Shown here piece after piece: positions 6,318 through 26,349 of a stretch of DNA of 64,000 nt. Source of the DNA: a virus (Duplodnaviria > Caudoviricetes). The DNA is taken from positions 1-64,000 of IMG/VR virus record IMGVR_UViG_3300032269_000703, one strand, 5' to 3'. Position 1 is the stretch's first letter. Every line of letters starts with the position of its first letter. The position numbers were made by a program, and so were the translations under genes. The notes below the pieces were generated by a model that was given only the letters and a program-made list of their open reading frames with translations, did no database searches and was not told the DNA's origin.

Positions 6318-6356
6318 TATTACCAGATCTACTTAATCATTAATAAGGAATAATAA

Positions 6357-6920: not shown

Positions 6921-7051
6921 TGGCAAAAGGCAAATCAGCACCAGCACCAGTTGTAAAAAGTGGTAGCGGTCGTAACAATGGTAAGGCGTCTAAAAAGCGC
7001 CCTAAAGTATTCGACGCAGTAAAGCGTCGTTTAGTAAACAAGGAGAAATAA
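6920..7051 (+). CDS. Small basic protein (43 aa, not in ORF track)
   Basis: MAKGKSAPAPVVKSGSGRNNGKASKKRPKVFDAVKRRLVNKEK fills the gap between coupled genes. Confidence 0.55.
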   Translation: MAKGKSAPAPVVKSGSGRNNGKASKKRPKVFDAVKRRLVNKEK

Positions 7052-7336: not shown

Positions 7337-7345
7337 AATAGTCTT

Positions 7346-8664: not shown

Positions 8665-8763
8665 CCGTGTCATTAAAAGATACATGCCACAAATGTAGTC
8701 ATGAATTACTAGCAGGAATGTGCACAGAAGATTATTGTAAGTGTGATTGTTTAGGAGACGATT

Positions 8764-9267: not shown

Positions 9268-9270
9268 CCA

Positions 9271-9756: not shown

Positions 9757-10096
9757 ATTACCTGTCACAATTAAAGTGGGTACTCAAGACTGGACTATTG
9801 TAGAGCACACGTCTAAAGAAGACGGTATGTTGTACGAAGATAACTATGGGTACACCCTAGAGCGCCGTAATATGATTGTCATAGATAAAGATGCGTCAGA
9901 TAGTCGTAAAAAGCAAGTCCTAATACACGAGATCTTGCACGCCATCAGGTTTACTTTTTTTACAGGTAATAAAATGGCACCAAAGCTAAGTTTTGAAGAC
10001 ACAGAACACTATTTCATTGGTATGTACGAAGAGACATTACTGATGGTTTTACAAGACAATCCACCACTCGTAGAATACTTATTGGATAAAAAATGA
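9749..10096 (+). CDS. HExxH zinc metallopeptidase-like protein
   Basis: YGYT...IVID...VLIHEILHAI...EHY. Confidence 0.65.
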   Translation: MSKLPVTIKVGTQDWTIVEHTSKEDGMLYEDNYGYTLERRNMIVIDKDASDSRKKQVLIHEILHAIRFTFFTGNKMAPKLSFEDTEHYFIGMYEETLLMVLQDNPPLVEYLLDKK

Positions 10097-11592: not shown

Positions 11593-11609
11593 CTGTTATC
11601 TGATAACAG
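11593..11609. promoter_or_regulatory. Perfect inverted repeat CTGTTATC-T-GATAACAG, operator-like, upstream of RNR
   Basis: 8-bp arms with a 1-nt centre in the intergenic region. Confidence 0.35.
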
Positions 11610-11765
11610 GGGTTTATATACCCTGAAACAAGGTCCGCACTATTTTTAAGTTAATACGTGCAAAAAAATAGTTTTATGCGCGATTGGACAAAGCGTAGTT
11701 TATAGGGTAAAATCGTATTCTGCCTAAATCGCAAATACCCCCTTTTACATTAATGGAGAGTCTAT

Positions 11766-13781
11766 ATGACTAATTTTTCTTTTAAATTATCCGAAGAGTT
11801 TGTAGCAAGCTATAACAGCAAGAAAGCACCTTTTGGCTACGCAGATGTTGCAGGAAACTCAGTAGGTGAAATTACCTTCCTACGTACCTATTCACGCAAG
11901 AAGCCAGATGGTACCAAGGAAACCTGGGTTGAAGTATGTGAACGTGTAATTAACGGTATGTACTCACTACAGAAAGATCACGCTAAGCAAAACCGCCTAC
12001 CTTGGTCAGATGCCAAGGCTGCTGCTAGTGCCAAGGAAGCGTTTGATCGTCTATTCAACCTAAAGTGGACACCACCAGGTCGCGGACTATGGGTTATGGG
12101 AACTTCACTAGTAAATGAACAGCGTAACTCTGCTGCGCTACAGAACTGTGCCTTTGTATCTACTAACGAAATGACTAAGGCTAACCCTGCCAAGCCGTTT
12201 GCATTCCTTATGGAAGCGTCAATGCTGGGTGTGGGTGTTGGTTTTGATGACAAGGGCGCTGATAAAGGATTTGAAATCTATGAGCCTAAATCAGATCTAG
12301 AATATATGATTCCAGATACTCGTGAAGGCTGGGCAGACAGCGCAGTTGCACTTATCAACTCTTATTTAAAGCCAGACCAGCCAAATTGGGTATTTGAATA
12401 CAAAGAAATTCGTCCATATGGAGCTGCGATTGCTACTTTTGGAGGAACAGCCTCTGGTCCAGAGCCACTAATTAAACTACACGATCAGATTAGGGTATTA
12501 TTTGCAGGTCGTGCTGGGCAGATGTTGACTCGTAAAGATATTGCTGATATCGGTAATATGATCGGTGTTTGTGTAGTATCAGGAAACGTTCGTCGTTCTG
12601 CAGAGCTACTAATTGGTCAGATTGACGATCAGGAGTTCCTAAACCTAAAGAACCCTGAACTAAACCCTGAGCGTATGGCTAACTGGGGTTGGATGTCTAA
12701 CAACTCAGTAGAAGTATCTGTGGGTACAGACTTCACTCCAATCGTAGATGGTATTGCACGTAATGGTGAGCCAGGTGTTATCTGGATGGACACATCACGT
12801 AAGTATGGTCGTTTGGCAGACAAGCCTAACAACAAGGACTGGCGTATTTCTGGGTACAACCCTTGTGCAGAACAAAGCCTAGAAAGTTTTGAGATGTGTA
12901 CTTTGGTTGAGACTTACCTAAACCGCCACGATAGCCTAGAAGATTATAAGCGCACTCTTAAGTTTGCTTATCTCTATGCTAAGACCGTGACCCTACTTCC
13001 TACTCACTGGGAAGAAACTAACGCTATTATGCAACGTAATCGCCGTATTGGTACTTCAATGTCTGGTGTAGCTAACTTTGCAGATAACAAGGGTCTACCT
13101 GTACTACGTCAATGGATGGATGAAGGCTACCAGGTTGTAACTGAGTATGACAAGACTTACTCTGAGTGGCTGGGTATTCGTGAATCTATCAAAATGACTA
13201 CAATCAAGCCATCAGGTACTGTGTCTCTTCTTGCAGGCGAGTCTGCTGGTGTGCACTGGGACGTTGCTGGTCGCTACCAAATGCGCTTGATTACATTTGC
13301 AGATAACGATCCAATGTTGCCACTATTCAAGATGGCTAACTATCGTGTAGAAGAAAGCGTATACACTAAGGGGTCATCAGTAGTGTACTTCCCTATCAAA
13401 TCTAACTCTGTTCGTTCTGCTAAAGACGTGTCTATTTATGAAAAGATCGCTCTAGCTGCAACAGCACAGCGTTACTGGTCAGACAACTCTGTATCAGTCA
13501 CAGTTTCTTTTGATGCTGAAAAAGAATCAGAAGATGTCGGTCGTGTATTGCATATGTACGATGGACAATTAAAGACCGTATCTTTCTTGCCTAGTGGCAA
13601 TAAGGTCTACGATCAAATGCCTTACCAGGAAATCACAGAAGACGAGTATAACGGGTACGCTATGCAACTCTTCCCGATTGACTTTAAGGGTGTCTATGCT
13701 GGTATGGCATCAGATGCTATTGGTGAGGCTTACTGCACCACAGACGCTTGCGAGATCAAACTCGTCAAGGACAACCAATAA
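11766..13781 (+). CDS. nrdJ: Class II (adenosylcobalamin-dependent, RTPR-type) ribonucleotide reductase
   Basis: RTYSR, PPGRGLW, LQNCAF, GNVRRSAE, NPCAEQ, TTIKPSGTVS and a C-terminal YCTTDAC redox pair. Confidence 0.95.
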   Translation: MTNFSFKLSEEFVASYNSKKAPFGYADVAGNSVGEITFLRTYSRKKPDGTKETWVEVCERVINGMYSLQKDHAKQNRLPWSDAKAAASAKEAFDRLFNLKWTPPGRGLWVMGTSLVNEQRNSAALQNCAFVSTNEMTKANPAKPFAFLMEASMLGVGVGFDDKGADKGFEIYEPKSDLEYMIPDTREGWADSAVALINSYLKPDQPNWVFEYKEIRPYGAAIATFGGTASGPEPLIKLHDQIRVLFAGRAGQMLTRKDIADIGNMIGVCVVSGNVRRSAELLIGQIDDQEFLNLKNPELNPERMANWGWMSNNSVEVSVGTDFTPIVDGIARNGEPGVIWMDTSRKYGRLADKPNNKDWRISGYNPCAEQSLESFEMCTLVETYLNRHDSLEDYKRTLKFAYLYAKTVTLLPTHWEETNAIMQRNRRIGTSMSGVANFADNKGLPVLRQWMDEGYQVVTEYDKTYSEWLGIRESIKMTTIKPSGTVSLLAGESAGVHWDVAGRYQMRLITFADNDPMLPLFKMANYRVEESVYTKGSSVVYFPIKSNSVRSAKDVSIYEKIALAATAQRYWSDNSVSVTVSFDAEKESEDVGRVLHMYDGQLKTVSFLPSGNKVYDQMPYQEITEDEYNGYAMQLFPIDFKGVYAGMASDAIGEAYCTTDACEIKLVKDNQ

Positions 13782-13795
13782 AATAAGGAGAACAT

Positions 13796-13954
13796 ATGTT
13801 CGGAAAACTAAAGAAACTAATTGCTGATCTAGAAGTTGTGTACAACTTGATTCAATCACACGCTGCTGAACTAGAGCAGTTGAAGGCTGATGTTGAAGCT
13901 TTGAAGCCAAAGAAGAAGGTCACCAAGCCAGTTGTAAAGAAGACTACCAAGTAA
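13796..13954 (+). CDS. Small coiled-coil protein with basic tail (52 aa)
   Basis: AAGGAG RBS; MFGKLKKLIADLEVVYNLIQSHAAELEQLKADVEALKPKKKVTKPVVKKTTK. Confidence 0.6.
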   Translation: MFGKLKKLIADLEVVYNLIQSHAAELEQLKADVEALKPKKKVTKPVVKKTTK

Positions 13955-13963
13955 CCTAAATAG

Positions 13964-13999
13964 AAAAAGCCCCTGGTTTTTGCCAGGGGCTTTCTCTTT
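13964..13999. terminator. Bidirectional intrinsic terminator between convergent gene blocks
   Basis: AAAAAGCCCCTGG-TTTTTG-CCAGGGGCTTTCTCTTT. Confidence 0.85.
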
Positions 14000-14005
14000 A
14001 TCTTG

Positions 14006-14548
14006 CTATATTGTAGGGATAACCCTTATAAACCTTATTTGACCAGATGAGTAATCTGTCAAAGGTTGGATTATCGTAGATTGTGCTCCACGATGCGCGT
14101 TGATTATCTTGCCATTACCAATATAAATAGCAGAATGGTAGAAGCTGGTAGATCCTTTATAAGCAAATACTACAATGTCTCCTAGTTTAGGTGTGTGAAC
14201 ACGCTTACCTATGTGACCTTGCTTGTTTGCGGAGTGTGGTAATTCCATACCAAATTTTTGGTATGTCCAGCGGACTAATCCTGAGCAATCCCATCCACGA
14301 GGACTTGCTCCAGAAAACACATAAGTAGTTCTTCCTACCCTGGTTTTCAAATAGTTTATTACTTTTTTCATTTGAGCAGTATTACGCTGTAGTTTTGCAA
14401 ATCTTATTAAATCTGCTTTTACATCATTTGTTGATACTACTTGTTCTTTTGCTACAGCATTAGGAATACCAAAAGCTGTTGCAGTTGAAGCAGAACATCC
14501 AGCAAGACTTAGAATTATGCCGGCTATTACTATCTTCTTGTTCATCAT
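14006..14548 (-). CDS. NlpC/P60 (C40) cell-wall peptidase with signal peptide
   Basis: YVFSGASPRGWDCSGLVRW, GDIVVF, HSAIYIGNGKIINAH; N-terminal signal with LAGC lipobox-like motif; GGAGG RBS. Confidence 0.9.
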   Translation of the reverse strand: MMNKKIVIAGIILSLAGCSASTATAFGIPNAVAKEQVVSTNDVKADLIRFAKLQRNTAQMKKVINYLKTRVGRTTYVFSGASPRGWDCSGLVRWTYQKFGMELPHSANKQGHIGKRVHTPKLGDIVVFAYKGSTSFYHSAIYIGNGKIINAHRGAQSTIIQPLTDYSSGQIRFIRVIPTI

Positions 14549-14637
14549 AGAACCTCCTATCCAAGACTACTTACACAGAAAGGGTATCTGCACAGCCAGC
14601 CTTTAATTTGTCAATGGTGTGGTTTTTTGATGCTCTT

Positions 14638-14868
14638 CTAGTTTAAACGATCTTTGCGCCTAGGGTTCTTTTTAACTAGAACTAATCCATAACGGCGTAG
14701 ATCACTCTGTATGTTGGCAAAAGCACGCTTATCTGATGGTGTAGCTGACGTAATGACCATCTTGCCATTAGGTGAGAGCCACTTGTAATGCCCCCCATTA
14801 GACTTTTCTACACGCCATCCCTGATCTTCTGCTACTTTGATCAGTTCTTGTATTTCTTTTGATTTCAT
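14638..14868 (-). CDS. HicA-like (dsRBD fold) protein, no adjacent HicB
   Basis: LIKVAEDQGWRVEKSNGGHYKWLSPNGKMVITSATPSD. Confidence 0.7.
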   Translation of the reverse strand: MKSKEIQELIKVAEDQGWRVEKSNGGHYKWLSPNGKMVITSATPSDKRAFANIQSDLRRYGLVLVKKNPRRKDRLN

Positions 14869-14869
14869 T

Positions 14870-15004
14870 TTAGTTTTCCTTGTTATTGTCGTTGCATTTA
14901 CTACATAAGTAAATAGTAGTTGCTGTTCCTAATAATTCAAAATCGTATTCTAGGACATCATCACCTACTGCTTCACATACATCACAGGGTTCATTCACGG
15001 GCAT
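14870..15004 (-). CDS. Small zinc-ribbon protein (44 aa)
   Basis: MPVNEPCDVCEAVG...YLCSKCND. Confidence 0.45.
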   Translation of the reverse strand: MPVNEPCDVCEAVGDDVLEYDFELLGTATTIYLCSKCNDNNKEN

Positions 15005-15170
15005 AACCCACCTCGTTTAACCATTCATCTAACTTATTTATCGCATTTTCTAAATCCTTAGTTGAACCATAATCATCAAGCCCATTAGGGTTATTCTTTA
15101 AATCAATCAAATTGTCTATTAAAATGCTCATTACTAACGTTGCTTCTTCTTCTGTAAGTACTGCGTGCAT
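14991..15170 (-). CDS. Small hypothetical protein (59 aa)
   Basis: MHAVLTEEEATLVMSILIDNL...; TAATG-coupled, GGAAGGA RBS. Confidence 0.5.
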   Translation of the reverse strand: MHAVLTEEEATLVMSILIDNLIDLKNNPNGLDDYGSTKDLENAINKLDEWLNEVGYARE

Positions 15171-15559
15171 TAGTTCCTTCCAAATCCAAGATCGTCAAAG
15201 CAATCTTCACATAAATAAGTTGATTCTATGTTGTTCCACCCATAACTAATGTGGTTAACAACTTGTCCTAAGCCACATTTCTCGCAAGGATCGTAGTCTT
15301 CATCCATAGGATCTAATGGACTTTCACTAATAATTTTAATAGCTAATACTTGGTTAAAATCAATACCATCATCGTAAAGTGGTTCATCCCAAATATCATT
15401 ATCTTCATCTTCTTCAATAGTGTCTATTGCCAGTAATGTTAACTTATGAGCGTCCTGTGGTAAAGACATACCTGGTTTTGCAATTACAGATATAAAAACA
15501 GAGTCATCCAATTCTGCCAATACTACTTCAACTTCATACTTTGTTAGGTTTAGTTCCAT
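15170..15559 (-). CDS. Acidic protein with C-terminal zinc ribbon
   Basis: CEKC...LCEDC; AAGGAG RBS. Confidence 0.55.
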   Translation of the reverse strand: MELNLTKYEVEVVLAELDDSVFISVIAKPGMSLPQDAHKLTLLAIDTIEEDEDNDIWDEPLYDDGIDFNQVLAIKIISESPLDPMDEDYDPCEKCGLGQVVNHISYGWNNIESTYLCEDCFDDLGFGRN

Positions 15560-15714
15560 TAGTTGTCTCCTTCAAATTCAACGTTGTAGAATGTTCCTTC
15601 TTCTTTACAAGCGCTACAGATGTATACCATAGTGCCGTCAATACCATTTGCTCCGTAGTCTGCATCCATTTCAAAGCAGTTGTCGCATAGGTAAATATCT
15701 TTTGGTGTTATCAT
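15559..15714 (-). CDS. Small zinc-ribbon protein (51 aa)
   Basis: MITPKDIYLCDNC...YICSACKE; coupled. Confidence 0.5.
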   Translation of the reverse strand: MITPKDIYLCDNCFEMDADYGANGIDGTMVYICSACKEEGTFYNVEFEGDN

Positions 15715-15869
15715 TAGTTATCCTTATCCTTTGGCATAGACCAAACTTTCTTTATTTCATTTAGCCTGCCCCTAAGAACGGCTAAAGCTGTTTCTTGTGC
15801 GCCTTCTGCATAACCGATGTCCTGTTTAAGATCAGCGATTACTAACTCATACGCTTTTGTTAGTTCCAT
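15714..15869 (-). CDS. Small hypothetical protein (51 aa)
   Basis: MELTKAYELVIADLKQDIG...; coupled. Confidence 0.5.
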   Translation of the reverse strand: MELTKAYELVIADLKQDIGYAEGAQETALAVLRGRLNEIKKVWSMPKDKDN

Positions 15870-16363
15870 TAGTTATTTTCCTTATTTTCGATTACCCATA
15901 AGTATTCATAGGTAGGTGGTTGTGAGCCTGTATCTTCTGCCCATTGAAACTGACTATACCATTCATAGTATTTTGATAGTAATGCTGTCCGGTGTGTCGT
16001 AGCAACTTCTTCAACAATACAAGGTGGATAGACAAGTTTATTCGAGACCCTGCCTTTCATTACTGCTGTTGTAAAAGTAGTGCGAGCTTTGTCGTCAATA
16101 GTCGTGTTGTAGCCCCTGGAACGCCATTCATCACACATAGCAATAATGTAATGAAGTAGTGCTGTTTCATAGCCACGCCACATCTTTACCGCAGGATGGT
16201 TTGCCCAGCCTTTAGGAATGCGATCATTGCCCAAAGGATCTAGTTCGGTAAGCGTCATAAGGATCTGCCACCCTTCTAACGCTTGTTTGTTTAGGCGCTT
16301 GTTGTCTAGCGTTTTAGCGATCTCACTAAAGTTAGTTGTCGCTATTGGTATAAATGTCTGCAT
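15869..16363 (-). CDS. Pyrimidine-dimer DNA glycosylase / MSMEG_6728 family
   Basis: MQTFIP...LDNKRLNKQALEGWQIL...WANHPAVKMWRGYE...HRTALLSK...YLW. Confidence 0.8.
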   Translation of the reverse strand: MQTFIPIATTNFSEIAKTLDNKRLNKQALEGWQILMTLTELDPLGNDRIPKGWANHPAVKMWRGYETALLHYIIAMCDEWRSRGYNTTIDDKARTTFTTAVMKGRVSNKLVYPPCIVEEVATTHRTALLSKYYEWYSQFQWAEDTGSQPPTYEYLWVIENKENN

Positions 16364-16500
16364 TAGTTTTCCACTATCCAAGAGTCTATCTCAATAAACT
16401 CAACATCAGGAGAGTTTGATTCTAATTTGAACATTGCTTCATCTTCATTTGAAGCTTCAACAACAAACTTTTCTCCAACTAGAATTGTGTATTTTGGCAT
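16363..16500 (-). CDS. Small acidic protein (45 aa)
   Basis: MPKYTILVGEKFVVEASNEDEA...; coupled. Confidence 0.5.
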   Translation of the reverse strand: MPKYTILVGEKFVVEASNEDEAMFKLESNSPDVEFIEIDSWIVEN

Positions 16501-16736
16501 CAGTTATCCCCATTCTCGTCAATAAAGTCGATCAAAGCGTTCCTAGTGCTGTGTGTAAAATCATCTGCAATAGCGTTGTGTGATGACTGCTCGTAATACT
16601 CAACAAAGTCGTTCCAAGTTTCATAGGTAAAATCTTCTTGGTCGCCCAAATCATTAGCGCTTACTATCTGCCAAATCAATTGCTCACCATCAGCATAATT
16701 ATCTTCAATAAACTCGATTAGTTCTTGCTTGGTCAT
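16500..16736 (-). CDS. Small acidic hypothetical protein
   Basis: 78 aa, coupled. Confidence 0.55.
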   Translation of the reverse strand: MTKQELIEFIEDNYADGEQLIWQIVSANDLGDQEDFTYETWNDFVEYYEQSSHNAIADDFTHSTRNALIDFIDENGDN

Positions 16737-16951
16737 TAGTTATCTTCCTTTGTGGTATCCTTTGTGGTCTTGCTTGTGGTCTTGCTTGCTATTTCTGCTA
16801 AGACTTCGTGTAGTGCTTTTGCTACTGCCATTTCGTCTTTTACTACTGCTTCGTTGAACTTTTCTGTGATCATAATAAAGATCTCGCCACGCTCAATGGC
16901 TTTGCCCATTTCGCTTGACTTGTCTATTAGATTTTCTATTTCTTTCTGCAT
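16736..16951 (-). CDS. Hypothetical protein
   Basis: 71 aa, coupled. Confidence 0.5.
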   Translation of the reverse strand: MQKEIENLIDKSSEMGKAIERGEIFIMITEKFNEAVVKDEMAVAKALHEVLAEIASKTTSKTTKDTTKEDN

Positions 16952-16952
16952 T

Positions 16953-17150
16953 TTATTTCTTTCTCTTTATTGGTTTGGCTTCTGCTTGTGCTTCGGCTTC
17001 TGGTCTTGCTTCTGGTATTGCTTCTGCTTTGGCTTCTGCTTTGGCTTCTGCTTTACACTCACATTCACAAATCGCTATGGTTTGTCCTGTGTTGATTTTT
17101 ATCCTACACCCTTCGTGGTGTCTTGTGATACACCAGCCACATTTCAACAT
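16953..17150 (-). CDS. Small Cys/His protein with AEAK-repeat tail
   Basis: CGWC...HHEGC...CECEC; AAGGA RBS. Confidence 0.5.
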   Translation of the reverse strand: MLKCGWCITRHHEGCRIKINTGQTIAICECECKAEAKAEAKAEAIPEARPEAEAQAEAKPIKRKK

Positions 17151-17172
17151 AAGTGTTATCCTTTTGTTATCT

Positions 17173-17316
17173 TTCTGGTATTGCTTTGGCTTTTGGTCTT
17201 GCTTCTGGTATTGCTTCTGGTTTGGCTTCTGGTATTGCTTTGGCTTTTGGTCTTGCTTCTGGTATTGCTTCTGGTTTGGCTTCTGGTATTGCTTTGGCTT
17301 TTGGTCTTGCTTCTGG
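17173..17316. repeat. 54-bp tandem repeat, about 2.7 copies
   Basis: Unit TTCTGGTATTGCTTTGGCTTTTGGTCTTGCTTCTGGTATTGCTTCTGGTTTGGC starts at 17173, 17227 and 17281. Confidence 0.9.
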
Positions 17317-17409
17317 CTTTGCTTTGCTTTTTTATCTTCGCTTTGGCTTTGGCTTTTGTTTCCTCGCTAAAAATCATTTCTTTTTCCTCGCTAAAACTGA
17401 TGGCTTTTG

Positions 17410-17664
17410 CTATGGCTTTGCTTTAGCTTTGTCCTGGCTTTGCGCTTCTAGGATCTGTATTGCTTTGCTGATGTCTTGTAGAGCGCTAGTGATTACGGCT
17501 TTGCTGGCAGCGTCAATACTAACTTCAACGGGTTTGCCGTCATCTCCTTTGGCTATGCCTGTCTTTAGTAGTAGCAACTTGCCTAGTGCTGTTTTTAGCA
17601 TTTGGCGTGTCTGCTCACTTTGGATCTGTTTGTTCTGCTTCTGTGTGCCGGTGGATCTGCTCAT
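17410..17664 (-). CDS. Hypothetical protein
   Basis: 84-aa ORF. Confidence 0.45.
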   Translation of the reverse strand: MSRSTGTQKQNKQIQSEQTRQMLKTALGKLLLLKTGIAKGDDGKPVEVSIDAASKAVITSALQDISKAIQILEAQSQDKAKAKP

Positions 17665-17752
17665 TTATGTTCCCGATTATTTTTGCCGATAATAATTATT
17701 ATGTAAAGTTGATTTCAAGTAAAAAAAATAATTAGATCTGGGGGTAGCCGGT

Positions 17753-18103
17753 TTAGGCTACTCCCTGATCTAACTGCTGCCTGGTTTCTTGATCTAGCTC
17801 TTGTGCGATCCTGGCATACTTAGCAACGCTTAGTAAATACTCTGCCAATTCTCGATCATTATTTACTAACTGGATTAGATCCAAAATAGGTCTGCTTCTG
17901 CGCTGGTTTCGCCTAACATACACTCTTACTGGCAGATCTGGGTCTGTTCCACGCTTCTTTCTTTGAGCAACTAGAACTCTTGCCTTTACGCACTCCCGAC
18001 ATCTGCTCGTTCCACCTATAAAATACCTAGAATTAGGCAAGGTTAGATCGTGTCCCCTTTTACATTCTTTCAAGCGTGGCTTATTCATTAGTGGCAACTC
18101 CAT
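17753..18103 (-). CDS. Zinc-finger protein (CKRGH...CREC module seen beside phage HNH domains)
   Basis: ECKRGHDLT...SRCREC; the true start may be 18088 (MNKP). Confidence 0.55.
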   Translation of the reverse strand: MELPLMNKPRLKECKRGHDLTLPNSRYFIGGTSRCRECVKARVLVAQRKKRGTDPDLPVRVYVRRNQRRSRPILDLIQLVNNDRELAEYLLSVAKYARIAQELDQETRQQLDQGVA

Positions 18104-18413
18104 CTCGAAGCAAGGTGAGAATGGCTAGATAACGCTCATTATCGGTATCTCGCAACTTGATTATTGCTTCTGCCATTCGCCGAGCTGTCCTGACCTTGTG
18201 GATCGTTCTCTTGGTTTCTGGGTTGGTTTTCTTGCCTAGCCAAACTCTTACATCTTTGGTTTTATAGACATACCTGCTGCCTATTTTTACTGGATCACTA
18301 GGCGTTGAGATTTTGAGCCAGGAATAGATCGTTGGCAAGGTCTTATCTGCCATTATTGCGATCTGCTTAGGCGTGAGTAGTTGCTCGTCTGTGAAGTTCG
18401 GTTTAGTTTCCAT
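18081..18413 (-). CDS. MerR/excisionase-like HTH DNA-binding protein
   Basis: LLTPKQIAIMADKTLPTIYSWL...PVKIGSRYVYKTKDVRVWL. Confidence 0.7.
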   Translation of the reverse strand: METKPNFTDEQLLTPKQIAIMADKTLPTIYSWLKISTPSDPVKIGSRYVYKTKDVRVWLGKKTNPETKRTIHKVRTARRMAEAIIKLRDTDNERYLAILTLLRDGVATNE

Positions 18414-19155
18414 TGTTCCTTTTCTCTCGATCTAACTCTACTGCGAGAGCTTTATTTTCTGCCTGTAATGCGAACATACTCTCCATAAGGGTTTCAAGTA
18501 GATCTATGCCTACTTGTGCTGATCCTGAAACCTTGACTTCATAAACATTTGGATCATCATTGAAACTAAACCCACTTGCCACGAAGTCCGGATAGTCTAT
18601 TTTGCCAAACTCGACACGAATGTTGGTTGAAATAGTGAGAGCGTCTGGTTCTCCACCACCATACCAATTTGGTCTGCTGTCGTTTCCTTTCCACTCTGCG
18701 AACTTAGCCATAAAGTCCTGTATTGCTTTTTCCTTAGTTTTTAGATTTAGCTGGTGAGTGGTTTCCTGTGTGCGCCTGATCTTGTCTATCTTGCTCTGTA
18801 ATAGGTGGATCTCTTTTTCTATAAGTGCTTGCTTACCCCAAACCTTTTGATAGTCGCTATAAAGCCCTTTGATCCACCTGGTAGGAACTATGGCGTAATG
18901 CTCGTTAGAGCCGTCTAGGTCGGTTATTTTGGCTAATAGCCCTGATCCTGATCCAGCGCCTAGATTTGTTTGTTGTTTTGCTAACGATACTGGATCTAGC
19001 GCATTACCAAACCACCTAATCGGCTGGTATCGGTTGGTATCAACTAGAACTGCTTTCTTTGCCCAGCGTGGATTTGGATCTCCACTATAACTAGCCATAA
19101 CGAACTCGGCTGTTGGATCTGCCGTTGCTGCTTTTTTGATTTTGTTGTATTCCAT
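18403..19155 (-). CDS. Hypothetical protein
   Basis: 250 aa, AAGGA RBS. Confidence 0.6.
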   Translation of the reverse strand: MEYNKIKKAATADPTAEFVMASYSGDPNPRWAKKAVLVDTNRYQPIRWFGNALDPVSLAKQQTNLGAGSGSGLLAKITDLDGSNEHYAIVPTRWIKGLYSDYQKVWGKQALIEKEIHLLQSKIDKIRRTQETTHQLNLKTKEKAIQDFMAKFAEWKGNDSRPNWYGGGEPDALTISTNIRVEFGKIDYPDFVASGFSFNDDPNVYEVKVSGSAQVGIDLLETLMESMFALQAENKALAVELDREKRNNGN

Positions 19156-19166
19156 AGCTCTTTTCC

Positions 19167-21113
19167 TTACTTTGTTAGGTGTTTGGCGATAGCCATTTTG
19201 ACGATAGATTTTGCTAACCCGATCAAGTGGTCGGGGTGCTGAATGTGTGCCGAGATCATACTTTCGTGGCTTGTTTTTGGATCAAGATCATTACCGATAA
19301 GCGCTAGTGCTGTGATAACTCCTGAACTGCCTAATGTCGAAATGATTTGATCTGCGTTATCACTCTCTATTCCCCATTCGCCGTCTGTAATGGTGAATAG
19401 GATTTTTACATTCCTGCGTGAGTTGGCGAATACGCTCTGCGAATAGAGCAACGCTTCTACTGGATCAGTTCCCCCGTCTGCGCCAGCATCTCGAAGCTCA
19501 CTCTTTACCCTGTCTTGTGGTTCGTAAAGCATTTCGGCATAAGTGTTGTAAGTGATAACGGAACAATTAGCGCCGATAGCCTGTAAGCCCTGCTTGATCG
19601 CAAACATAGACTTATAGGCGCTTACTGCCTTAGATCCAGACATAGACCCGGAGTTGTCTAACAAGATTACGGCTTCGAGATCCGTTGCTTCATCTTGTCC
19701 GTCATACCATTCGTCAAATGTGGTTTCTATGTCCTTTTCGGTTAGGTATCTGCTGGCGTTGATTTTTCCACTATCTAGGCGTGTTCGCCAGTTAGGTTCG
19801 AGATCAGTTCTAATGCGTTCTAGTTCAATTCCAAACTGCTTACCTGCCGCAAGTGTTCGGGTATCTACTTGCCTAGTGGTGTATCTAGCTCGTTTTGGTC
19901 TATCAACCTTTATGTCCTGTAAAGATAGATCATTCTTGAAGTCCCGAATGTCCTTAGTGATTTCGGTTTTTACTTTTTCGAGATCTTTCTGCCATTGGTC
20001 AAGAATGGTGTCTTTCAACATTGGATCTAAATACTTTGGATCGTGTTTTGAAGCGCCATTTGTATCATCTTTATTTGGATCTGGATCTCCCTTGTCCTGA
20101 TCCTTTTTGTTGCTCTTTTGTGAGTTTGGGGTTTGTCCCTGTTTCTGTCCCTGCCCTTGTTCCTGCTCTGGTGTAGGTGTAGGCGAAGTTGGCATAGGGA
20201 ACTTACAACCTGTTTGGTTTTGTGGTTCTGGTTCTGGCTGATCGCCTGGCTTCGGTGGTGCGCTCTGGTTAGTTCCCTTAGTGTTTGTTTCATTACGCTT
20301 GGTTGCGCCGTTTTTAGCGTGTTCCTGATCCTTTATTGGTAGTGGTCGGCTGGCACTAGGTTCTAGTTCATCACTAGGTCTAGTTTCGTGTCCGTTAGGT
20401 GTTGGGATTTTGCCGCAACCTGTTCCAGTTTTCATTTCGCCTAATAGCTCTTGAAGTCTGCGAAGTATGTCTAATGCTCGAAGTATGGTTTGATCGTCAT
20501 TCCATACCATTACTCGGTATTCGTCTAGTAGTGCCTGGATCTCGTCTATGTGTTGTGGTTGAGCATAAACATCTTGAAGCGCCTGTCTAACTGCTACTGG
20601 TAGATACTTGCGACCTGCGACCACCGGAAATTGTGTTGATAGATCGAGATCAGGTGTGAGCAAGTGTCTAAACACGCTGGCATTGAGCCACGCTGTAATG
20701 TTTGTGCCGAACCTGCCGATCAGTAGTGTTTCAATTCGGCTATCTTCTGCTATCGAATACGCTTCCGTAAGGTTTTCTTTGTTGATAATTCTCTTGAATG
20801 ATGATCCATTCCTAGCGCTAAATAGAATGTGGCAGATTTCGTGAAGTGTAAGTCCTTTGAGCGCCATAGCTTTTTTAGGATCAGTAATGTCTGTTAGGTG
20901 ATTAGCTGAATACACGATAGTTCTGCTTGTTGCGACTACTGGGGCAACGCCGAATGGCACGACTAGGCAATTTACGCTTCTAAGCGTGATTACGCTGGCG
21001 TATTTGCTGAATACCTGACTAACTCTCTCTATGCGATCTAACGCTTTCTGCTGTTCTGTTCTGGCGTGGATAGTCCATTTCACGCTGTCTTGATCATCTG
21101 GCAATAACATCAT
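19167..21113 (-). CDS. CobT-like protein: HExxH domain, low-complexity linker, C-terminal vWA domain
   Basis: LHEICH and AEDSRIE; MIDAS motif LLDNSGSM...GGT...ITDGE. Confidence 0.85.
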   Translation of the reverse strand: MMLLPDDQDSVKWTIHARTEQQKALDRIERVSQVFSKYASVITLRSVNCLVVPFGVAPVVATSRTIVYSANHLTDITDPKKAMALKGLTLHEICHILFSARNGSSFKRIINKENLTEAYSIAEDSRIETLLIGRFGTNITAWLNASVFRHLLTPDLDLSTQFPVVAGRKYLPVAVRQALQDVYAQPQHIDEIQALLDEYRVMVWNDDQTILRALDILRRLQELLGEMKTGTGCGKIPTPNGHETRPSDELEPSASRPLPIKDQEHAKNGATKRNETNTKGTNQSAPPKPGDQPEPEPQNQTGCKFPMPTSPTPTPEQEQGQGQKQGQTPNSQKSNKKDQDKGDPDPNKDDTNGASKHDPKYLDPMLKDTILDQWQKDLEKVKTEITKDIRDFKNDLSLQDIKVDRPKRARYTTRQVDTRTLAAGKQFGIELERIRTDLEPNWRTRLDSGKINASRYLTEKDIETTFDEWYDGQDEATDLEAVILLDNSGSMSGSKAVSAYKSMFAIKQGLQAIGANCSVITYNTYAEMLYEPQDRVKSELRDAGADGGTDPVEALLYSQSVFANSRRNVKILFTITDGEWGIESDNADQIISTLGSSGVITALALIGNDLDPKTSHESMISAHIQHPDHLIGLAKSIVKMAIAKHLTK

Positions 21114-21171
21114 TTTTGTTTTCCTGTTCTATGACTTGTTTTGGTTGTAAATAAATTGGATCAGGGCAAGT

Positions 21172-21197
21172 AAAGGGGAATGTTGCCATTCCCCTTT
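21172..21197 (-). terminator. Hairpin / putative terminator between AAA and vWA genes
   Basis: AAAGGGGAATG-TTGC-CATTCCCCTTT. Confidence 0.55.
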
Positions 21198-21228
21198 TCC
21201 TGCTCTCTCTGCTCGGTGTTGGGCAGAA

Positions 21229-22119
21229 TTAGACTTCGTAATCGCCTAGTTCGATTTCTAGTTCATCACTAATGCGCTGTGAGTAAGTCGCAAGCAACAT
21301 AGATACGCTCTGGCGTTCATCTGTCGGGAAGTTTTGAACGAAGTTATAGACGGCGAACCTGAAACTTAGTCCCTTAGCCGTCTGGACAAACTCCTTGATC
21401 AAGCGTGTTGAAATTGGTGTGCTGAACTTGTTTTCGTTGCGAGCAAGCTCTCTCATAGCCTTAGCCAGTTCAAGCAAACTATCACTTGGAATAAAGTTGC
21501 GCTCTAAGATCTCGTCATACTCGAACTCGACCTTTATTGCGTATCTGTCCATAAACGCTTGATCAGGCTTGATTACGCCACGATAATCAAGGTTGGCATC
21601 AGCAATAATCAGGCAGTTTTTATGAACCTTGATTTTCTCGTTTAGGTGTGTGTCCAGCGTGAGTTCTCTCTCTTGGAGAATACGCAGGAATAGAGCATTA
21701 GCCTTAGCGCTCATTCGGGTTGCTTCGTTCAATAGAACTACGCTCTCCTGACCTAGTGCTGTTGCGAGTTCGCTGTTGTGCCAGGCTAGTTGATCACCTT
21801 GTCCAGTTGGCACGAAACCACCTTGAACAATACGAGAGTTCATCTCGGCATTACATTCGACAATAGCTAGTGGTAGTCCCCTAGTTGCTGAATACCACTC
21901 TGCCGTGCTGCTTTTTCCTGTTCCTGCTTCACCAGTAATCATTACGGCTTTTTGATTAGCCCTTGCGTAATCAAGAATGACCCCGATCTGCTGACCTTCG
22001 ATTTCTCTTGGAAAATGTCCTGCCACTTCCGGATCTGTCGGCTGTGGTCGGCGTAGAGTTGCCCATTCCTTACCTGTAAAGGTCGGTGTAAGTGGCTCTA
22101 ACTGGATTTGAATTGCCAT
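21229..22119 (-). CDS. MoxR/CobS/NorQ-type AAA+ ATPase
   Basis: Walker A GEAGTGKS, Walker B VLLNE, and DQAFMDRY and ISTR motifs; partner of the vWA gene. Confidence 0.85.
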   Translation of the reverse strand: MAIQIQLEPLTPTFTGKEWATLRRPQPTDPEVAGHFPREIEGQQIGVILDYARANQKAVMITGEAGTGKSSTAEWYSATRGLPLAIVECNAEMNSRIVQGGFVPTGQGDQLAWHNSELATALGQESVVLLNEATRMSAKANALFLRILQERELTLDTHLNEKIKVHKNCLIIADANLDYRGVIKPDQAFMDRYAIKVEFEYDEILERNFIPSDSLLELAKAMRELARNENKFSTPISTRLIKEFVQTAKGLSFRFAVYNFVQNFPTDERQSVSMLLATYSQRISDELEIELGDYEV

Positions 22120-22163
22120 TGGCGTTATTCCTTAGTTCTAATTGGATAACTAACTTTTGTTAG

Positions 22164-22213
22164 TCGTGAGTAGTCGGGAATTGAACCCGAATAACTGCCC
22201 CCAGGCACTACCC
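22164..22213 (-). ncRNA. Miniature tRNA-like RNA (acceptor stem plus T-arm, no anticodon arm)
   Basis: GGGTAGT/ACTACTC acceptor stem; TCGGG-TTCAATT-CCCGA T-arm; small GCC-TGGG-GGC hairpin; 3' ACGA. Confidence 0.6.
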
Positions 22214-22223
22214 TTTTTTGGAT

Positions 22224-22952
22224 CTAGCAACACTCACATTCGGCGCAAGTGTCGCAATAGGCGTGTGGTGGATAGCTACATTCATCAGGATCATCACAAG
22301 GTTCATCAAGATCATCTAAATCGTAATGAACATAATTACATTGGCAACTATCACCACAACAAGCCGAGCAACTATCGCAAACACATTCGAGCTGATCTCT
22401 AAACGAATTGGCAAGCGATTTGATCTGCTGGCTATCTCTCATTAGGTCGGCGAGAAATTGTTGCTGTTCGTTTAGTGCCGATCTGTCGAACTGCCGCATT
22501 TGAACCCACTCCAACGCCTTTACTGGAACATAGTGAGCGCAAGAAAACACTTTGGCATAGAGTTCTGGCAATTGGATCAGGTAGCGCACAAAATTATTGA
22601 AACCCCACGCCCACTTCTCTACCACTTCAAGTTCGATCAGGCTGTTTCGATTAGCACTTGGCGCATAAGTAATAATTGCGCCTATCTGGTCGTAGTGTTC
22701 CTTGATCCCAACTAACGCAAATGCGAAATACCTATTACTCAATAAATAGGTATTCTCTGGCGCTTCACTTTTAGCTAACTGGATCAGGTATTCGGTCTGG
22801 CTCTGTAAGTGATCTAATGTTCTCGCAGTTAGAGAATTGACCATTTCAGCGCCATTCGATAACCCTGCCTGATAGAAATACTTGCTCTGTTGTTCAGTAA
22901 GAAGTTCGGTGTTTTCTCGAACATACGCTAGATCATCATCAGCCATACCCAT
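22224..22952 (-). CDS. Hypothetical protein with Cys-rich, acidic C-terminus
   Basis: About 14 Cys in the last 55 aa; GGGAG RBS. Confidence 0.55.
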   Translation of the reverse strand: MGMADDDLAYVRENTELLTEQQSKYFYQAGLSNGAEMVNSLTARTLDHLQSQTEYLIQLAKSEAPENTYLLSNRYFAFALVGIKEHYDQIGAIITYAPSANRNSLIELEVVEKWAWGFNNFVRYLIQLPELYAKVFSCAHYVPVKALEWVQMRQFDRSALNEQQQFLADLMRDSQQIKSLANSFRDQLECVCDSCSACCGDSCQCNYVHYDLDDLDEPCDDPDECSYPPHAYCDTCAECECC

Positions 22953-22971
22953 TTTTTACTCCCTGCTGCTT

Positions 22972-23364
22972 TTAGTGGTCGTGATCGCAGTTATCATCAT
23001 CATCATCATCACAAGATCCGTCTTGTTTGGCTAGATCGTGAAGTTCGCCGAGCTTAGATTTGATCCCTAACAGAACATCTTGTTTCTGCTTCCAATCTTT
23101 CAACTCGTTTGGATCTTTCTCCATTAGTAATGCCATAGCGCACATCTGGAATAACATTCGATTTGCCGAATTGAGAGCGTGAAGTTCCTCGTGAGATAGC
23201 GACATAGGGAACTCTCTAAGGTTGCCAGCGCCGTCTTTTTCCATACCTGCTTCTCTCGCTTCTTTTTCCTGTCGTTCCTGTTCCTGTTGGATCAGTTTGG
23301 CAAGTTCAGCGTTTAGGAATTGTAGATCGCCGTCTGTCTGCTTCTGTTCTGGTTGCTCGTTCAT
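22972..23364 (-). CDS. Hypothetical acidic protein
   Basis: Likely start MNEQP at 23364, coupled to the upstream stop. Confidence 0.5.
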   Translation of the reverse strand: MNEQPEQKQTDGDLQFLNAELAKLIQQEQERQEKEAREAGMEKDGAGNLREFPMSLSHEELHALNSANRMLFQMCAMALLMEKDPNELKDWKQKQDVLLGIKSKLGELHDLAKQDGSCDDDDDDNCDHDH

Positions 23365-23870
23365 TACTCCCACTCCCCAGCCCACTCGTCATTACGGATC
23401 ATTTGCTCGTTGATCTGTGTTGGCATAGGCATTGAACCGGAGATAGCCCAGTTCTCGTTCAGTTGGTCGTAATCGTGATCAGCAAGGTTATCCAGATCAG
23501 CAAGGGGACAGAACTCACTCTCGCACTCGTGATCTAACGCTTGGTTTCTGTGGCGCTCAATAGCTCGAAACTCCACAACTACCCTTGCCAGGATCATCTC
23601 TGCTGTCTTGCGAATGGTGTCTGTGCCTAGCTCTGCCAGAATGTCGTTGCCAGCAAGGTTTTCCATTCGATCCAGAATGTCGGCGATCCTGTAAGCGGCT
23701 AATTCTTGAACTTCTCTTGCTTCGTGGCAGGTTGGTTCGCCGAACTCTGCTGTTTGCTCATTCAGGTAATCAGTTTTTAGATCGCACATTAGCAATAAGT
23801 TCCCTGAACTGGTCGGGTATTCATTATCCAAATACTCGGTTATTGTTTCGTAGCCCTGTCGGTCTATCAT
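23364..23870 (-). CDS. Hypothetical acidic protein
   Basis: 168 aa, AGGAG RBS. Confidence 0.55.
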   Translation of the reverse strand: MIDRQGYETITEYLDNEYPTSSGNLLLMCDLKTDYLNEQTAEFGEPTCHEAREVQELAAYRIADILDRMENLAGNDILAELGTDTIRKTAEMILARVVVEFRAIERHRNQALDHECESEFCPLADLDNLADHDYDQLNENWAISGSMPMPTQINEQMIRNDEWAGEWE

Positions 23871-24086
23871 TTTCTATCACTCCTAATCGGGTTGAGTTCT
23901 CGGCAGGTTTGCCGATTAGTAAGACACTAAAACACGCTAGGGACATTTAGGCAGGGTTTCTCTGGATCTGGCAGGTGTTTATTTATAGTTTCTATCTCTG
24001 CGCTTCTACAAGCCAATAAATAGCGTTTTAGCCCTGATCTGGATCTAAGTGCTGCGAAGCTCTGGCAGATCACCAACTCCGGGTAT

Positions 24087-24132
24087 AAAAAAGCCCCTTG
24101 CCTACTAATTAGGGGAATAGGCAAGGGGACTT
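24087..24132 (-). terminator. Intrinsic terminator (minus strand)
   Basis: CCCCTTGCCTA/TAGGCAAGGGG stem with an A6 run on the left (U-tract on the minus strand). Confidence 0.75.
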
Positions 24133-24206
24133 CAAGTAGTAGTCGAATGTGTCGTTATCTGCTCATAGGCACTCGTTTCTGTTGATGGACAAGGATCAGT
24201 ATAGGA

Positions 24207-24554
24207 CTAACTGCCGAGATCAGGAATAAGGTCGAGATCCTGCTCGTCTAGCAAATGGACAAAATGATCTAGCCAGCGTATAGCGTGGATCGGGTTATCG
24301 GCGAACACTACTAACGCTTTACCTAGTAGATCCAACTCCAAATACCCTAAGTTCTCTGGTGGAACATAGTCATAAGGTAGAAGCCCTTGTTGATCGTGAT
24401 AGTTGATCAGGTAGATAAAGCCGTGTAATGGACTAGCGCTGTTCGGCGTAGCTGTGTGGTGTTCGTATAGGCGAGCAAGTGGCGCAAGCGCTAGTGGCGT
24501 TTCAGTTAGGAAATCATCTAAATCGTCAAATTGAGCAAACATCTTTATTTCCAC
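24207..24554 (-). CDS. Hypothetical protein
   Basis: 115 aa. Confidence 0.5.
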   Translation of the reverse strand: MEIKMFAQFDDLDDFLTETPLALAPLARLYEHHTATPNSASPLHGFIYLINYHDQQGLLPYDYVPPENLGYLELDLLGKALVVFADNPIHAIRWLDHFVHLLDEQDLDLIPDLGS

Positions 24555-24769
24555 TTCTTACCGAGAGCAACCAACATAACATTCGGCGAAACTCGCAAAA
24601 TACGGCATAGATCAGCAAGCGTGTCTGCTGGTATCTCTCGTTGCTGGTGGAAATACCTAGACAAACTCGACTTCTGGAAGCCTGTGTATAGGCAGAACTG
24701 ATTTAGGGACTTGAAGCCCTGTTTCTGGTAGCGATCTACGAACCAAGCGTAAGTTTGATCAGGTTTCAT
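24545..24769 (-). CDS. XRE-family HTH protein
   Basis: SLNQFCLYTGFQKSSLSRYF...EIPADTLADLCRILRVSP; probable start MKPDQ. Confidence 0.7.
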   Translation of the reverse strand: MKPDQTYAWFVDRYQKQGFKSLNQFCLYTGFQKSSLSRYFHQQREIPADTLADLCRILRVSPNVMLVALGKKWK

Positions 24770-25116
24770 CTCTGGCAACCACACTCTCGGCTCTTGAAGG
24801 TATCGAGAAGCGCCCATTCGTTCAGGCGAAGCGTGAATAGGAACTGGCGATCAGTATCTAGGTTTCGCACCTGGAAGCAACTCCAAATGAGCTGTTCGCC
24901 TTGCTGGAATGACCAGACAACACTCACGATCTCTAATGTTGCGCCGTTCTTCATTACGCTATCGCCAACAACTAGGTTGTGCGCTTGTCTTGCTATGTAT
25001 CGGGAATGAGCGTGATCCCCGACATTTGGATCTAATAGTTTCACTTGAAACTCCTTGATTAGTTGGAATACCTGCCAAGTGGCAAGTGGATAAATACTAA
25101 CTCCAAATAGGCACAA
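24766..25116 (-). CDS. Hypothetical protein (start uncertain)
   Basis: ORF; AAGGAG before VKLLDP suggests an internal GTG start. Confidence 0.4.
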   Translation of the reverse strand: MCLFGVSIYPLATWQVFQLIKEFQVKLLDPNVGDHAHSRYIARQAHNLVVGDSVMKNGATLEIVSVVWSFQQGEQLIWSCFQVRNLDTDRQFLFTLRLNEWALLDTFKSRECGCQR

Positions 25117-25203
25117 AACACCACAATTCGCAGCAACACTCCAAGCTCACACCAGCAACAGAATAAAAATAAAACGCCAAGTATGAAGTCCCCTAGACAT
25201 AGA

Positions 25204-25733
25204 GATCCAGATAGAGAGAGAGAGATAACACTCAATAGATCCAGATCCAGATCTAAACCAAACTCCGGGCATTAGATCACACCAACACCGGAGATCCTGG
25301 CACTAAACCTGATCCAACTGAGAGCTGATCTAAATAGCCTGGAACACCGGAGATCGGCAGCAATAGTTCGAGATCCACTCGCCCAGGCACTAGCTATGGA
25401 TCTAATACCTGATAACGGCAACCCTGATCTAACGCTGACCTGATCACACTAGCCGTCAAGCCCTAGTGATCATTCGGCAGTAGCCTAAACGGCTCGTAGA
25501 AGCCCTTATTTGCCTAACCCTAACTATCTATCCATTCCCCTATTCAAGCCCTACACGACCCCGTAGAAGCCGTATTTGACCATAGAGCAGATAAACGGCG
25601 TGTCTAACCCCTAAATAGCCGTAGATCCGTATAATCCACGATCTCGGCGTGTCGCAATTTGACTATTTAGATCCATAGAGCTAAACTACGCCATCACCAG
25701 ATCTAAGCGTTATCAAATAGTTATGTAGAGATC
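25204..25733. repeat. Noncoding block with a dense GATC cluster
   Basis: 19 GATC counted in about 530 bp (14 within 25204-25471); AACACCGGAGATC occurs twice. Confidence 0.8.
25645..25687 (+). promoter_or_regulatory. Sigma70/SigA-type promoter 1 with upstream CGGCGTGTCG box
   Basis: TTGACT (25659) - 17 bp - TAAACT (25682). Confidence 0.6.
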
Positions 25734-25773
25734 GGCGTGTCGATTTGACTAATGCCACCGGTTATGGTAAGGT
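25733..25773 (+). promoter_or_regulatory. Sigma70/SigA-type promoter 2 with upstream CGGCGTGTCG box
   Basis: TTGACT (25745) - 17 bp - TAAGGT (25768), with a TGn extended -10. Confidence 0.6.
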
Positions 25774-25845
25774 GCGAGCAGGTCTGCCCAGGAGAAATCC
25801 ACGCTTGGTACCCATAAAGTTAGGCAGTAGCCTATAATGAGCTTT

Positions 25846-26349
25846 ATGAGCAAAAATGCAAATTTTAAACATGGGTCGCAAACGCTTGTTACACCTACAG
25901 AGCTAAAAAAGCTCGCTAAGTCGTTGCTAGATCCTGAGCACGAAGAGTTTGGTGAGCCAGGCAGTAAGTATCAGGACAGTAACCACCTATACTGGCAGAA
26001 TAGCACTAGGTGGGGTGCTGCCGGTGAGTGTGAGAACACCTCTAGATGGATACACCCGTATCTACCACAGGGCTCTCAGATAGTCAATATGGACAACTCT
26101 AAAGAAGATTCTTGGGTTGATGAGGACGGACAGAGAAGAACTGCCTCAATAGGCAACCACTACGTAACTGTTGTTCCTACTACAGAAGGTCCACACGTAG
26201 TAGACTTTACTCATAGACAGTTTCATAGCACCGCAGAATTTCCTATAGTACAACATATTAACGATTTTATGAAGAGAGCGTCTATGAAAGGCTACATTTT
26301 AGACCAAGAGCAGCTTTCTCCTACACTTAAAGAGAACTTAGGCGAATAA
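25846..26349 (+). CDS. Papain/transglutaminase-like Cys-His-Asp enzyme
   Basis: AAGECENTS...GNHYVTVV...VVDFTHRQF; leader MSKNANF. Confidence 0.6.
   Translation: MSKNANFKHGSQTLVTPTELKKLAKSLLDPEHEEFGEPGSKYQDSNHLYWQNSTRWGAAGECENTSRWIHPYLPQGSQIVNMDNSKEDSWVDEDGQRRTASIGNHYVTVVPTTEGPHVVDFTHRQFHSTAEFPIVQHINDFMKRASMKGYILDQEQLSPTLKENLGE

Follow-up and report, generated by a model that had tools for sequence, protein, structure and literature searches.

Positions 16951..25807 of the virus record IMGVR_UViG_3300032269_000703 (Caudoviricetes), referred to below as the block, contain none of eight four-base palindromes and are purged of ~36 short words altogether. The window analyzed here comprises the first 64 kb (64,000 nucleotides) of this 93,035-bp record, the ends of which overlap by 123 bp and thereby give a circular assembly. 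Within the genome's sole minus-strand operon, the 9 kb nearest the promoter are completely purged, and the purge wanes across the 3 kb farthest from it. It acts at the level of DNA, is specific to position, is conserved and is under ongoing selection, with a fast turnover of the purged vocabulary. We consider it probable that the block is first-exposed leader DNA under position-specific restriction avoidance.

Extent and limits of the word purge

An earlier note on this DNA had claimed that GTAC, CATG, TGCA, ACGT, TTAA and ATAT, together with GANTC and GGWCC, are missing from the block, and counting bears this out, with 0 occurrences of each in 16951-25807. CGCG, GGCC and GAGG likewise have 0 occurrences. 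In the k-mer observed/expected check that the note had proposed, a maximal-order Markov model predicted 15-36 occurrences per word where 0 were observed, a result far from normal frequency. The eight absent palindromes (TTAA, TGCA, ATAT, ACGT, GTAC, CATG, CGCG and GGCC) are half of the 16 possible four-base palindromes. Permuting synonymous codons within the block's own codon pool, with the block proteins unchanged, gave an expectation of 168.1±10.5 for the eight combined (minimum 140 in 500 shuffles), compared to 0 observed.

The purge extends well beyond these palindromes. A first-order Markov screen, in which a word was called purged if at least 7 occurrences were expected and no more than 8% of the expectation was observed, returned 36 words or word pairs. 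The degenerate families ACNGT, GTNAC, TCNGA, GANTC, GGNCC, CGWCG, CASTG, RAATTY and GWGCWC have 0 occurrences in the block, and the asymmetric words GGATG/CATCC, GTCTC/GAGAC and CTCAG/CTGAG are missing in both orientations; GAGG occurs 0 times and CCTC 3 times. Because GAGG is banned, ribosome-binding sites in the block are spelled AGGAA or GGAAA. Six-base palindromes follow the same trend, as 56 of the 64 are absent from the block, whereas 20-32 are missing from 8.9-kb windows elsewhere in the genome. Non-coding DNA is equally purged, as seen in the 690 bp at the block's right end. Since asymmetric words are lost in both orientations and untranscribed DNA is purged as well, selection must act on double-stranded DNA and not on RNA or protein; an RNA-level cause, such as endoribonuclease motifs, was ruled out on the same grounds.

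The list of purged words reads like a catalog of Type II and Type IIS recognition sites. We take the words to correspond to the sites of MseI, HpyCH4V, HpyCH4IV, RsaI, NlaIII, BstUI, HaeIII, HinfI, AvaII, HpyCH4III, MaeIII, Hpy188I, Hpy99I, MnlI, AciI, FokI, BsmAI and MboII. ATAT is the exception, as we know of no enzyme with this specificity.

As the earlier note had stated, the words that it listed are common elsewhere, and in 2-kb bins the block is unique in the whole genome. Strong avoidance outside the operon is limited to GGCC (1 versus 153 expected in 93 kb) and to three six-base words, of which GAGCTC and GCATGC have no copy in the genome and TTCGAA has one. The depletion of all other purged words is confined to the block. 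The pattern is therefore two-tiered, with a handful of words excluded from the whole genome and several dozen from the block alone. CATG has long gaps beyond the block, the longest running from 9235 to 25870 (16.6 kb, leftward through the genes for a DpdA-like protein and ribonucleotide reductase (RNR)); further CATG-free stretches lie at 55270-60375 (5.1 kb) and at 79114-82778 of the record (3.7 kb). These gaps suggest a patchy second tier of avoidance for CATG.

The two limits of the block differ in kind. The right boundary is as sharp as the earlier note had described, with GTAC (25808), TGCA (25857), TTAA (25865) and CATG (25870) all returning within 63 bp (25808..25870). The first site past it is a GGTACC, which lies within a 44-nt stretch that is nearly identical in three genomes. 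The left edge that the note had drawn at 16951 did not hold up, as TGCA alone returns there, at 16947. The other words reappear farther leftward, at 16418 (GANTC), 15826 (TTAA), 15695 (ATAT), 15581 (ACGT), 15158 (GTAC), 14299 (GAGG) and 14096 (CGCG). The density of the eight palindromes per kb accordingly rises from 0 (16.95-25.8 kb) to ~3 (16.0-16.95 kb) and ~15 (14-16 kb), compared to ~27 outside. Because the words come back one by one down to 14.1 kb, the purged unit is the leftward operon together with its control region. The GC content of the block is 45.0%, versus 40.8% elsewhere in the genome.

Selection and vocabulary turnover among relatives

A megablast search with the block and its right neighbor against 50,697 phage records gave no match, and the operon's von Willebrand A (vWA) domain protein alone as query recovered no related loci. 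The RNR gene was used in its place and gathered 65 related IMG/VR loci. The earlier note had proposed the same analysis in related genomes, and the purge recurs there: three genomes (G001-G003) with RNR genes 90-93% identical carry a homologous, equally purged block that shares the MoxR ATPase and vWA genes and likewise ends sharply on the right and gradually on the left. A conserved GGTACC is again the first site past the right boundary. Nucleotide identity with these close relatives is 81-86% in the flanks and 67-80% inside the block.

The banned vocabulary varies between lineages. AATT is additionally banned in G002 (0 versus 8.6 per kb outside the block) and GCGC in G001 and G003, and ACTGG, GAATG, GAGCG and TTGAA are banned in relatives and allowed in the present phage. 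The more distant G004 (RNR 81%) bans AATT, ACGT, ATAT, CATG, CGCG, GTAC and TTAA and keeps TGCA, GGCC and GANTC. Among sister lineages, the vocabularies differ via synonymous changes. Relatives with ~85%-identical flanks thus purge different extra words, and block proteins outpace the flanks in divergence, a pattern of arms-race turnover.

Two contigs from other samples (L092 and L093) are ~96% identical to the present sequence over the block and were compared to a neutral null, in which their 279-280 substitutions were randomly placed on the present sequence with the substitution spectrum kept (500 trials). Under this null, 33.3±5.6 occurrences of the eight palindromes were expected (minimum 19) and 3 were found; for the extended word set, 69 were expected and 8 found. 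Strong purifying selection therefore maintains the purge now, with new sites ~10-fold fewer than neutral change predicts.

One four-base palindrome is enriched in the block. GATC has 128 sites there, or 14.5 per kb versus 3.4 outside (~4-fold), spread over 17400-25800 and densest at 25150-25470. In the coding part, 116 were observed versus 68.5±5.2 by codon shuffle, and the excess shows in each of the three reading frames and also in the non-coding leader, with varied sequence on either side; no HIP1-like (GCGATCGC) or other fixed context was found around the block GATC sites. GGATCC and CGATCG are absent from the block despite this excess. The enrichment is common to the 96%-identical relatives and is not found in G001-G003 (block GATC 1.5 per kb), in which the present GATC mostly stands as GACC or GACT at same-residue positions; several more distant relatives have no GATC genome-wide. 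Relative to L092 and L093, 8 GATC sites were lost (15.3±3.5 under neutrality) and 6 gained (3.4±1.8 under neutrality). GATC appears to be positively maintained in the present sub-lineage. TCGA is also denser inside the block (14006-25807 and its counterparts in G001-G004), by 4-10 times in these five genomes (2.7-4.9 versus 0.3-0.8 per kb), a trend opposite to that of the other palindromes. A reciprocal restriction pattern was considered for TCGA; codon usage is the simpler account, and the excess is probably a codon-usage effect, as TCG and CGA codons are rare outside the block.

The leftward operon, its control region and a candidate genome end

PHROG matches in the genome include a large terminase subunit, a portal, a major capsid protein, RNR and the DpdA-like protein. 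Among cultured phages, Streptomyces phage BRock and its relatives come nearest by capsid protein (60% identity), followed by Bacillus phage BCD7 (41%). By tblastn, gene order is collinear with BRock (Borockvirus) over nearly the entire genome, with identities of 60% for the major capsid protein, 55% for the portal and 52% for the large terminase subunit. The WhiB gene points to an actinobacterial host. The plus strand carries almost all genes, the sole exception being the leftward operon, which runs from ~25.4 kb down to 14006 and is parted from the rightward genes by a non-coding gap of 415-720 bp (25117/25421-25836). The features of the operon and its surroundings are as follows.

10093-11592: DpdA-like protein (queuine-tRNA-ribosyltransferase family; PHROG 887, E = 1e-63)
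11766-13781, rightward: RNR (PHROG match)
13962..13997: bidirectional terminator hairpin at the junction of the leftward operon with the rightward RNR gene
14006..16950, minus strand: distal part of the leftward operon, with the purge fading over ~3 kb
14006..14548, minus strand: NlpC/P60 peptidase with a lipoprotein signal, the operon's last gene
15869..16381, minus strand: pyrimidine-dimer DNA glycosylase (DenV-like), located where the purge is partial
16746..17443, minus strand: tandem-repeat zone with periods of 12, 30 and 54 nt, located where the complete purge ends
16953-17150, minus strand: Cys-rich protein with an EAKA/EAKP repeat tail, encoded by the repeat zone
17156-17377, minus strand: very basic S/T/K/R repeat protein, protamine-like, encoded by the repeat zone
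17753-18103, minus strand: HNH endonuclease-like protein
18081-18413, minus strand: excisionase/MerR-like helix-turn-helix protein
19167..21113, minus strand: vWA domain protein, partner of the MoxR ATPase, with a CobT-like annotation in Gordonia phages
21229..22119, minus strand: MoxR-type AAA+ ATPase (AAA_5)
22224..22952, minus strand: acidic protein of 242 amino acids (aa), isoelectric point (pI) 4.3, with 14 invariant Cys in its C-terminal part
22972..24554, minus strand: three acidic proteins that match no known family (137 aa, pI 4.5; 168 aa, pI 4.2; 115 aa, pI 4.3)
23927-24124, minus strand: basic 65-aa open reading frame (pI 9.0) lying among the acidic-protein genes
24545..24817, minus strand: Cro/C1-type helix-turn-helix regulator
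25117..25836: divergent non-coding control region, itself purged, with a GATC-rich leader at 25150-25470
25497-25849: conserved part of the control region, with three CGGCGTGTC boxes and rightward promoter-like TTGACT-17-TAnnnT sites
92307-92537: WhiB gene

The DpdA-like protein has a BRock counterpart (gp36) and no Pfam match at E ≤ 0.001. The 242-aa protein is fast-evolving, with only 4 detectable homologs at 93% and 43-45% identity; together with the lower nucleotide identity inside the block, this paucity of homologs indicates that the block evolves fast. The AlphaFold model of this protein has a mean pLDDT of 54.7, and ESM Atlas look-ups for two acidic proteins gave low-confidence models with no usable feature matches. 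By inference only, the three acidic proteins in 22972..24554 may be candidate DNA-mimic or anti-defense proteins. Block proteins (16951-25421) contain 1.85% cysteine versus 0.62% in the remaining proteome, and Q, R and L are also more common in them. The repeat zone is the best conserved stretch of the block, at 80-86% identity in relatives.

In the control region, the CGGCGTGTC boxes at 25596, 25645 and 25733 flank TTGAC(C/T) elements. A second element, GGCAGTAGCC followed by TAnnnT or TAAAC, occurs on the plus strand only, in three copies (25476, 25823 and 35608). Of these, the one at 25823, GGCAGTAGCC-TATAAT, stands directly before the first plus-strand gene, with TATAAT ~10 nt upstream of the ATG at 25846, and judged by this spacing it looks like the promoter of a leaderless mRNA.

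The layout of BRock offers a guide to where the physical genome end may lie. Its linear record is bounded by an identical 222-bp terminal repeat at both ends, and this repeat has on one side an opposite-strand block (gp1-27, with transcription running inward from the end) and directly on the other the beginning of the main transcription unit. Synteny with BRock therefore places the physical end of the present genome in the control region at 25.4-25.8 kb, so that the block would abut the place where BRock has its ends; we lean toward this location, with odds only somewhat better than even. The BRock terminal-repeat junction has no sequence similarity to the 25.0-26.0 kb region.

Contig ends were considered as evidence of termini. 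Among the relatives, L092 ends at 25737, in the CGGCGTGTC boxes, and L093 at 25465, in GATC-rich repeats; two independent 93-kb assemblies of the phage break at ~17.2 kb, inside the 54-nt tandem array. A third contig, from a close relative, and the present assembly both read uninterrupted across 25.5-25.7 kb and 17.2 kb. The ends of the G004 contig were rejected as termini, as the two share no repeat and the tail stops within coding sequence.

First-exposed DNA as the proposed reading, and the alternatives

Because the purge is limited to one segment, exposure or protection must be limited to one segment too. We propose that the end bearing the block would enter first and be expressed while host restriction enzymes are still fully active, such that a restriction site inside the block would be lethal and selection would remove it. 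The remaining chromosome would enter or become accessible only once a protective state exists, either through staged entry (a T5-like two-step process) or through slow entry (T7-like, transcription-coupled). Anti-restriction functions could provide this protection, either expressed from the block or entering along with the DNA, and the four acidic proteins near the promoter end (pI 4.2-4.5) and the MoxR AAA+/vWA pair are candidates for them. The graded distal edge would be compatible with entry that proceeds progressively, as in T7, and also with a T5-like stop close to the ~17-kb repeat zone. The interpretation given in the earlier note stands in kind, as restriction avoidance that acts on DNA, in one segment and under selection, whereas its exact terminus, its terminal repeat and its protecting agent found no support.

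The closest precedent is T5. In T5 and BF23, restriction-modification acts only via sites in the first-step-transfer DNA, and other sites are insensitive (PMC10644984; bioRxiv 10.1101/866236). The present phage resembles T5 in having a ~9-kb early-gene segment beside a genome end (here a putative one), in the repeat-rich zone at the inner border of the segment and in the enrichment of one four-base palindrome within it, GCGC in T5 and GATC here. The distance from the repeat zone to the putative end is 8.5-8.8 kb, about the size of T5 first-step-transfer DNA. The present repeats (16746-17443) are well conserved and lie just where the purge ceases to be complete, yet they are coding; by analogy, the zone is possibly a counterpart of the injection-stop region. 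In T5 itself, first-step-transfer DNA (L073, 1-9200) has 5.8 GCGC per kb versus 0.8 in the next 30 kb, and 2.9 CGCG per kb versus 0.5; GCGC is the core of the nick-site consensus stated in the T5 record.

The differences from T5 are equally clear. The T5 segment (1-9200) shows no purge of any four-base palindrome; its six-base palindromes are moderately depleted, with 37 of 64 missing (17-26 in further T5 windows), compared to 56 of 64 in the present block. A tblastn search with eight T5 first-step-transfer proteins (including A1, A2 and dmp) against the genome gave a best E of 0.39. The present host, judging from the WhiB gene, is actinobacterial. A long terminal repeat and two-step injection characterize T5 and are hypothetical for the present phage. 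Sites that are found elsewhere in the genome are lacking from one segment, as in T5, with an effect far stronger than in T5. By analogy, the block would function like first-step-transfer DNA without belonging to the T5 family, as a non-homologous and much more extreme analog.

T7-like phages (Autographiviridae, including Murciavirus) provide a second comparison. In Murciavirus, restriction sensitivity depends on motifs in the first-injected region; motifs elsewhere do not matter, and the DNA that follows is shielded by anti-restriction products made early (PMC12455610). The present phage, like BRock, is likely to have a short terminal repeat, and the graded relaxation of the purge would fit progressive entry. 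The T7-like cases concern single Type I motifs, whereas the present block excludes dozens of Type II-like words. The present phage also has neither an Ocr homolog nor clear inward-facing promoters, and it is a 93-kb BRock-like phage instead of a podovirus; BRock itself has a tail sheath gene. The leading regions of conjugative plasmids show no consistent depletion of 4-8-bp palindromes (PMC13478746), unlike the almost completely purged block, and their mechanism of entry differs. The large terminase subunit, portal, major capsid protein and synteny with a tailed phage set the present genome apart from conjugative plasmids. The principle, restriction acting solely through sites in the DNA that enters first, is known from T5 and T7-like phages with single enzymes, and its scale here is absent from the literature found: a literature search returned no description of a comparable multi-word, segment-specific phage purge, which does not prove that none exists.

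Several observations weigh against the first-exposed-DNA reading. The assembly is circular, and we infer the termini, the entry order and the identity of the protecting function. The contig breaks at 25.46-25.74 kb and ~17.2 kb all fall in repeats and were rejected as proof of termini. Near the boundary there is no strong inward-facing sigma-70 promoter; the clear promoter-like sites face rightward, and a search for inward (leftward) promoters gave one weak match only, at 25606-25579. No recognizable anti-restriction gene (Ocr, ArdA or T5 A1/A2) was found in the genome, and for Ocr and ArdA there was no Pfam or PHROG match, the four acidic proteins being present with low-confidence models. BRock shares genome-wide synteny and, in its layout, a single opposite-strand block beside the genome end, yet its opposite-strand block has no genes in common with the present block and shows no palindrome purge. 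Three distant complete relatives (G005-G007) likewise keep an opposite-strand block with little block-specific purge, so that the architecture alone does not force the purge; they instead ban one or two words genome-wide (GATC; CCGG plus GATC; CGCG). The GATC enrichment is not predicted by the first-exposed-DNA model either.

Four other explanations were weighed. The block could be a long direct terminal repeat (T5-like, ~8.6 kb, ~17.2-25.8 kb) that collapsed in assembly, which is a special case of the first-exposed-DNA reading with the block at both ends. Its size matches the 8-10 kb of T5 first-step-transfer DNA, a repeat-rich zone lies at its inner border as at the T5 injection stop signal and the two 93-kb assemblies break at ~17.2 kb. 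The 54-nt tandem array explains these breaks, however, BRock as the closest phage with a linear record has just the 222-bp repeat and the weakened purge extends left of 17 kb; we regard this as the less likely version of the two, and as unlikely overall. Alternatively, the whole genome would enter together, with virion DNA outside the block bearing a protective base modification or a bound protein that the block lacks, for example so that host RNA polymerase can read it; the block would then depend on site avoidance. The DpdA-like protein, encoded here and in BRock, speaks for such a modification, as does the fact that GGCC, a word without A or T, is the sole four-base word purged genome-wide. 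TTAA and ATAT contain no G, and 7-deazaguanine therefore cannot protect them, yet both are normal outside the block and absent inside it. The genes neighboring the DpdA-like gene encode no preQ0-synthesis Pfam domains, methyltransferase domains of the Dam, N4/N6 or C5 type were not found in the genome, and no known mechanism would spare one 9-kb region from replicative or post-replicative modification. This account seems to us improbable.

Far less credence is given to the remaining two. The words could be avoided since early phage nucleases, such as the HNH protein of the block, cut them in host DNA, as in Davison's proposal for T5 A1 (bioRxiv 10.1101/866236), and an HNH-like gene does lie inside the block. 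The ~36 unrelated words are too many for one or two phage enzymes to recognize, the remaining phage genome contains the purged words and would itself be cut, and the word lists change between sister phages with a conserved HNH region, which together make this explanation very improbable. The most doubtful of all is that the block is a recently acquired foreign module with a composition reflecting its donor. The GC content of the block is 4-7 points above the rest in all five genomes, and the block genes have no BRock counterparts, as might be expected of such a module. Against this, the block is syntenic and purged in G001-G003, L092 and L093, and sister-lineage vocabularies differ through synonymous changes. 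Recent horizontal acquisition, which the earlier note had named as its refuting case, is rejected by the ~10-fold removal of new sites in L092 and L093.

If the block is indeed first-exposed leader DNA, such a purge would be a sequence-only marker of the first-entering end and the early genes in uncultured phages, and the restriction repertoire of uncultured actinobacterial hosts would be inferable from phage sequence. The acidic, fast-evolving block proteins would point to where unrecognized anti-restriction genes lie. The strongest site-avoidance signal of a genome can escape whole-genome averages. A bolder version, which we hold tentatively and at somewhat less than even odds, is that a lineage of freshwater actinophages carries a "stealth leader" of ~9 kb, the sequence of which keeps changing so as to stay free of every word recognized by the restriction enzymes of the host population. 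The purged-word list would then be a direct read-out of host restriction specificities, including ATAT, with no enzyme known to us, that shifts between phages merely ~15% diverged, and GATC would be actively accumulated for a protective or recognition function. Staged genome entry, which to our knowledge has so far been demonstrated only for T5- and T7-like coliphages, would in that case be widespread in actinophages.

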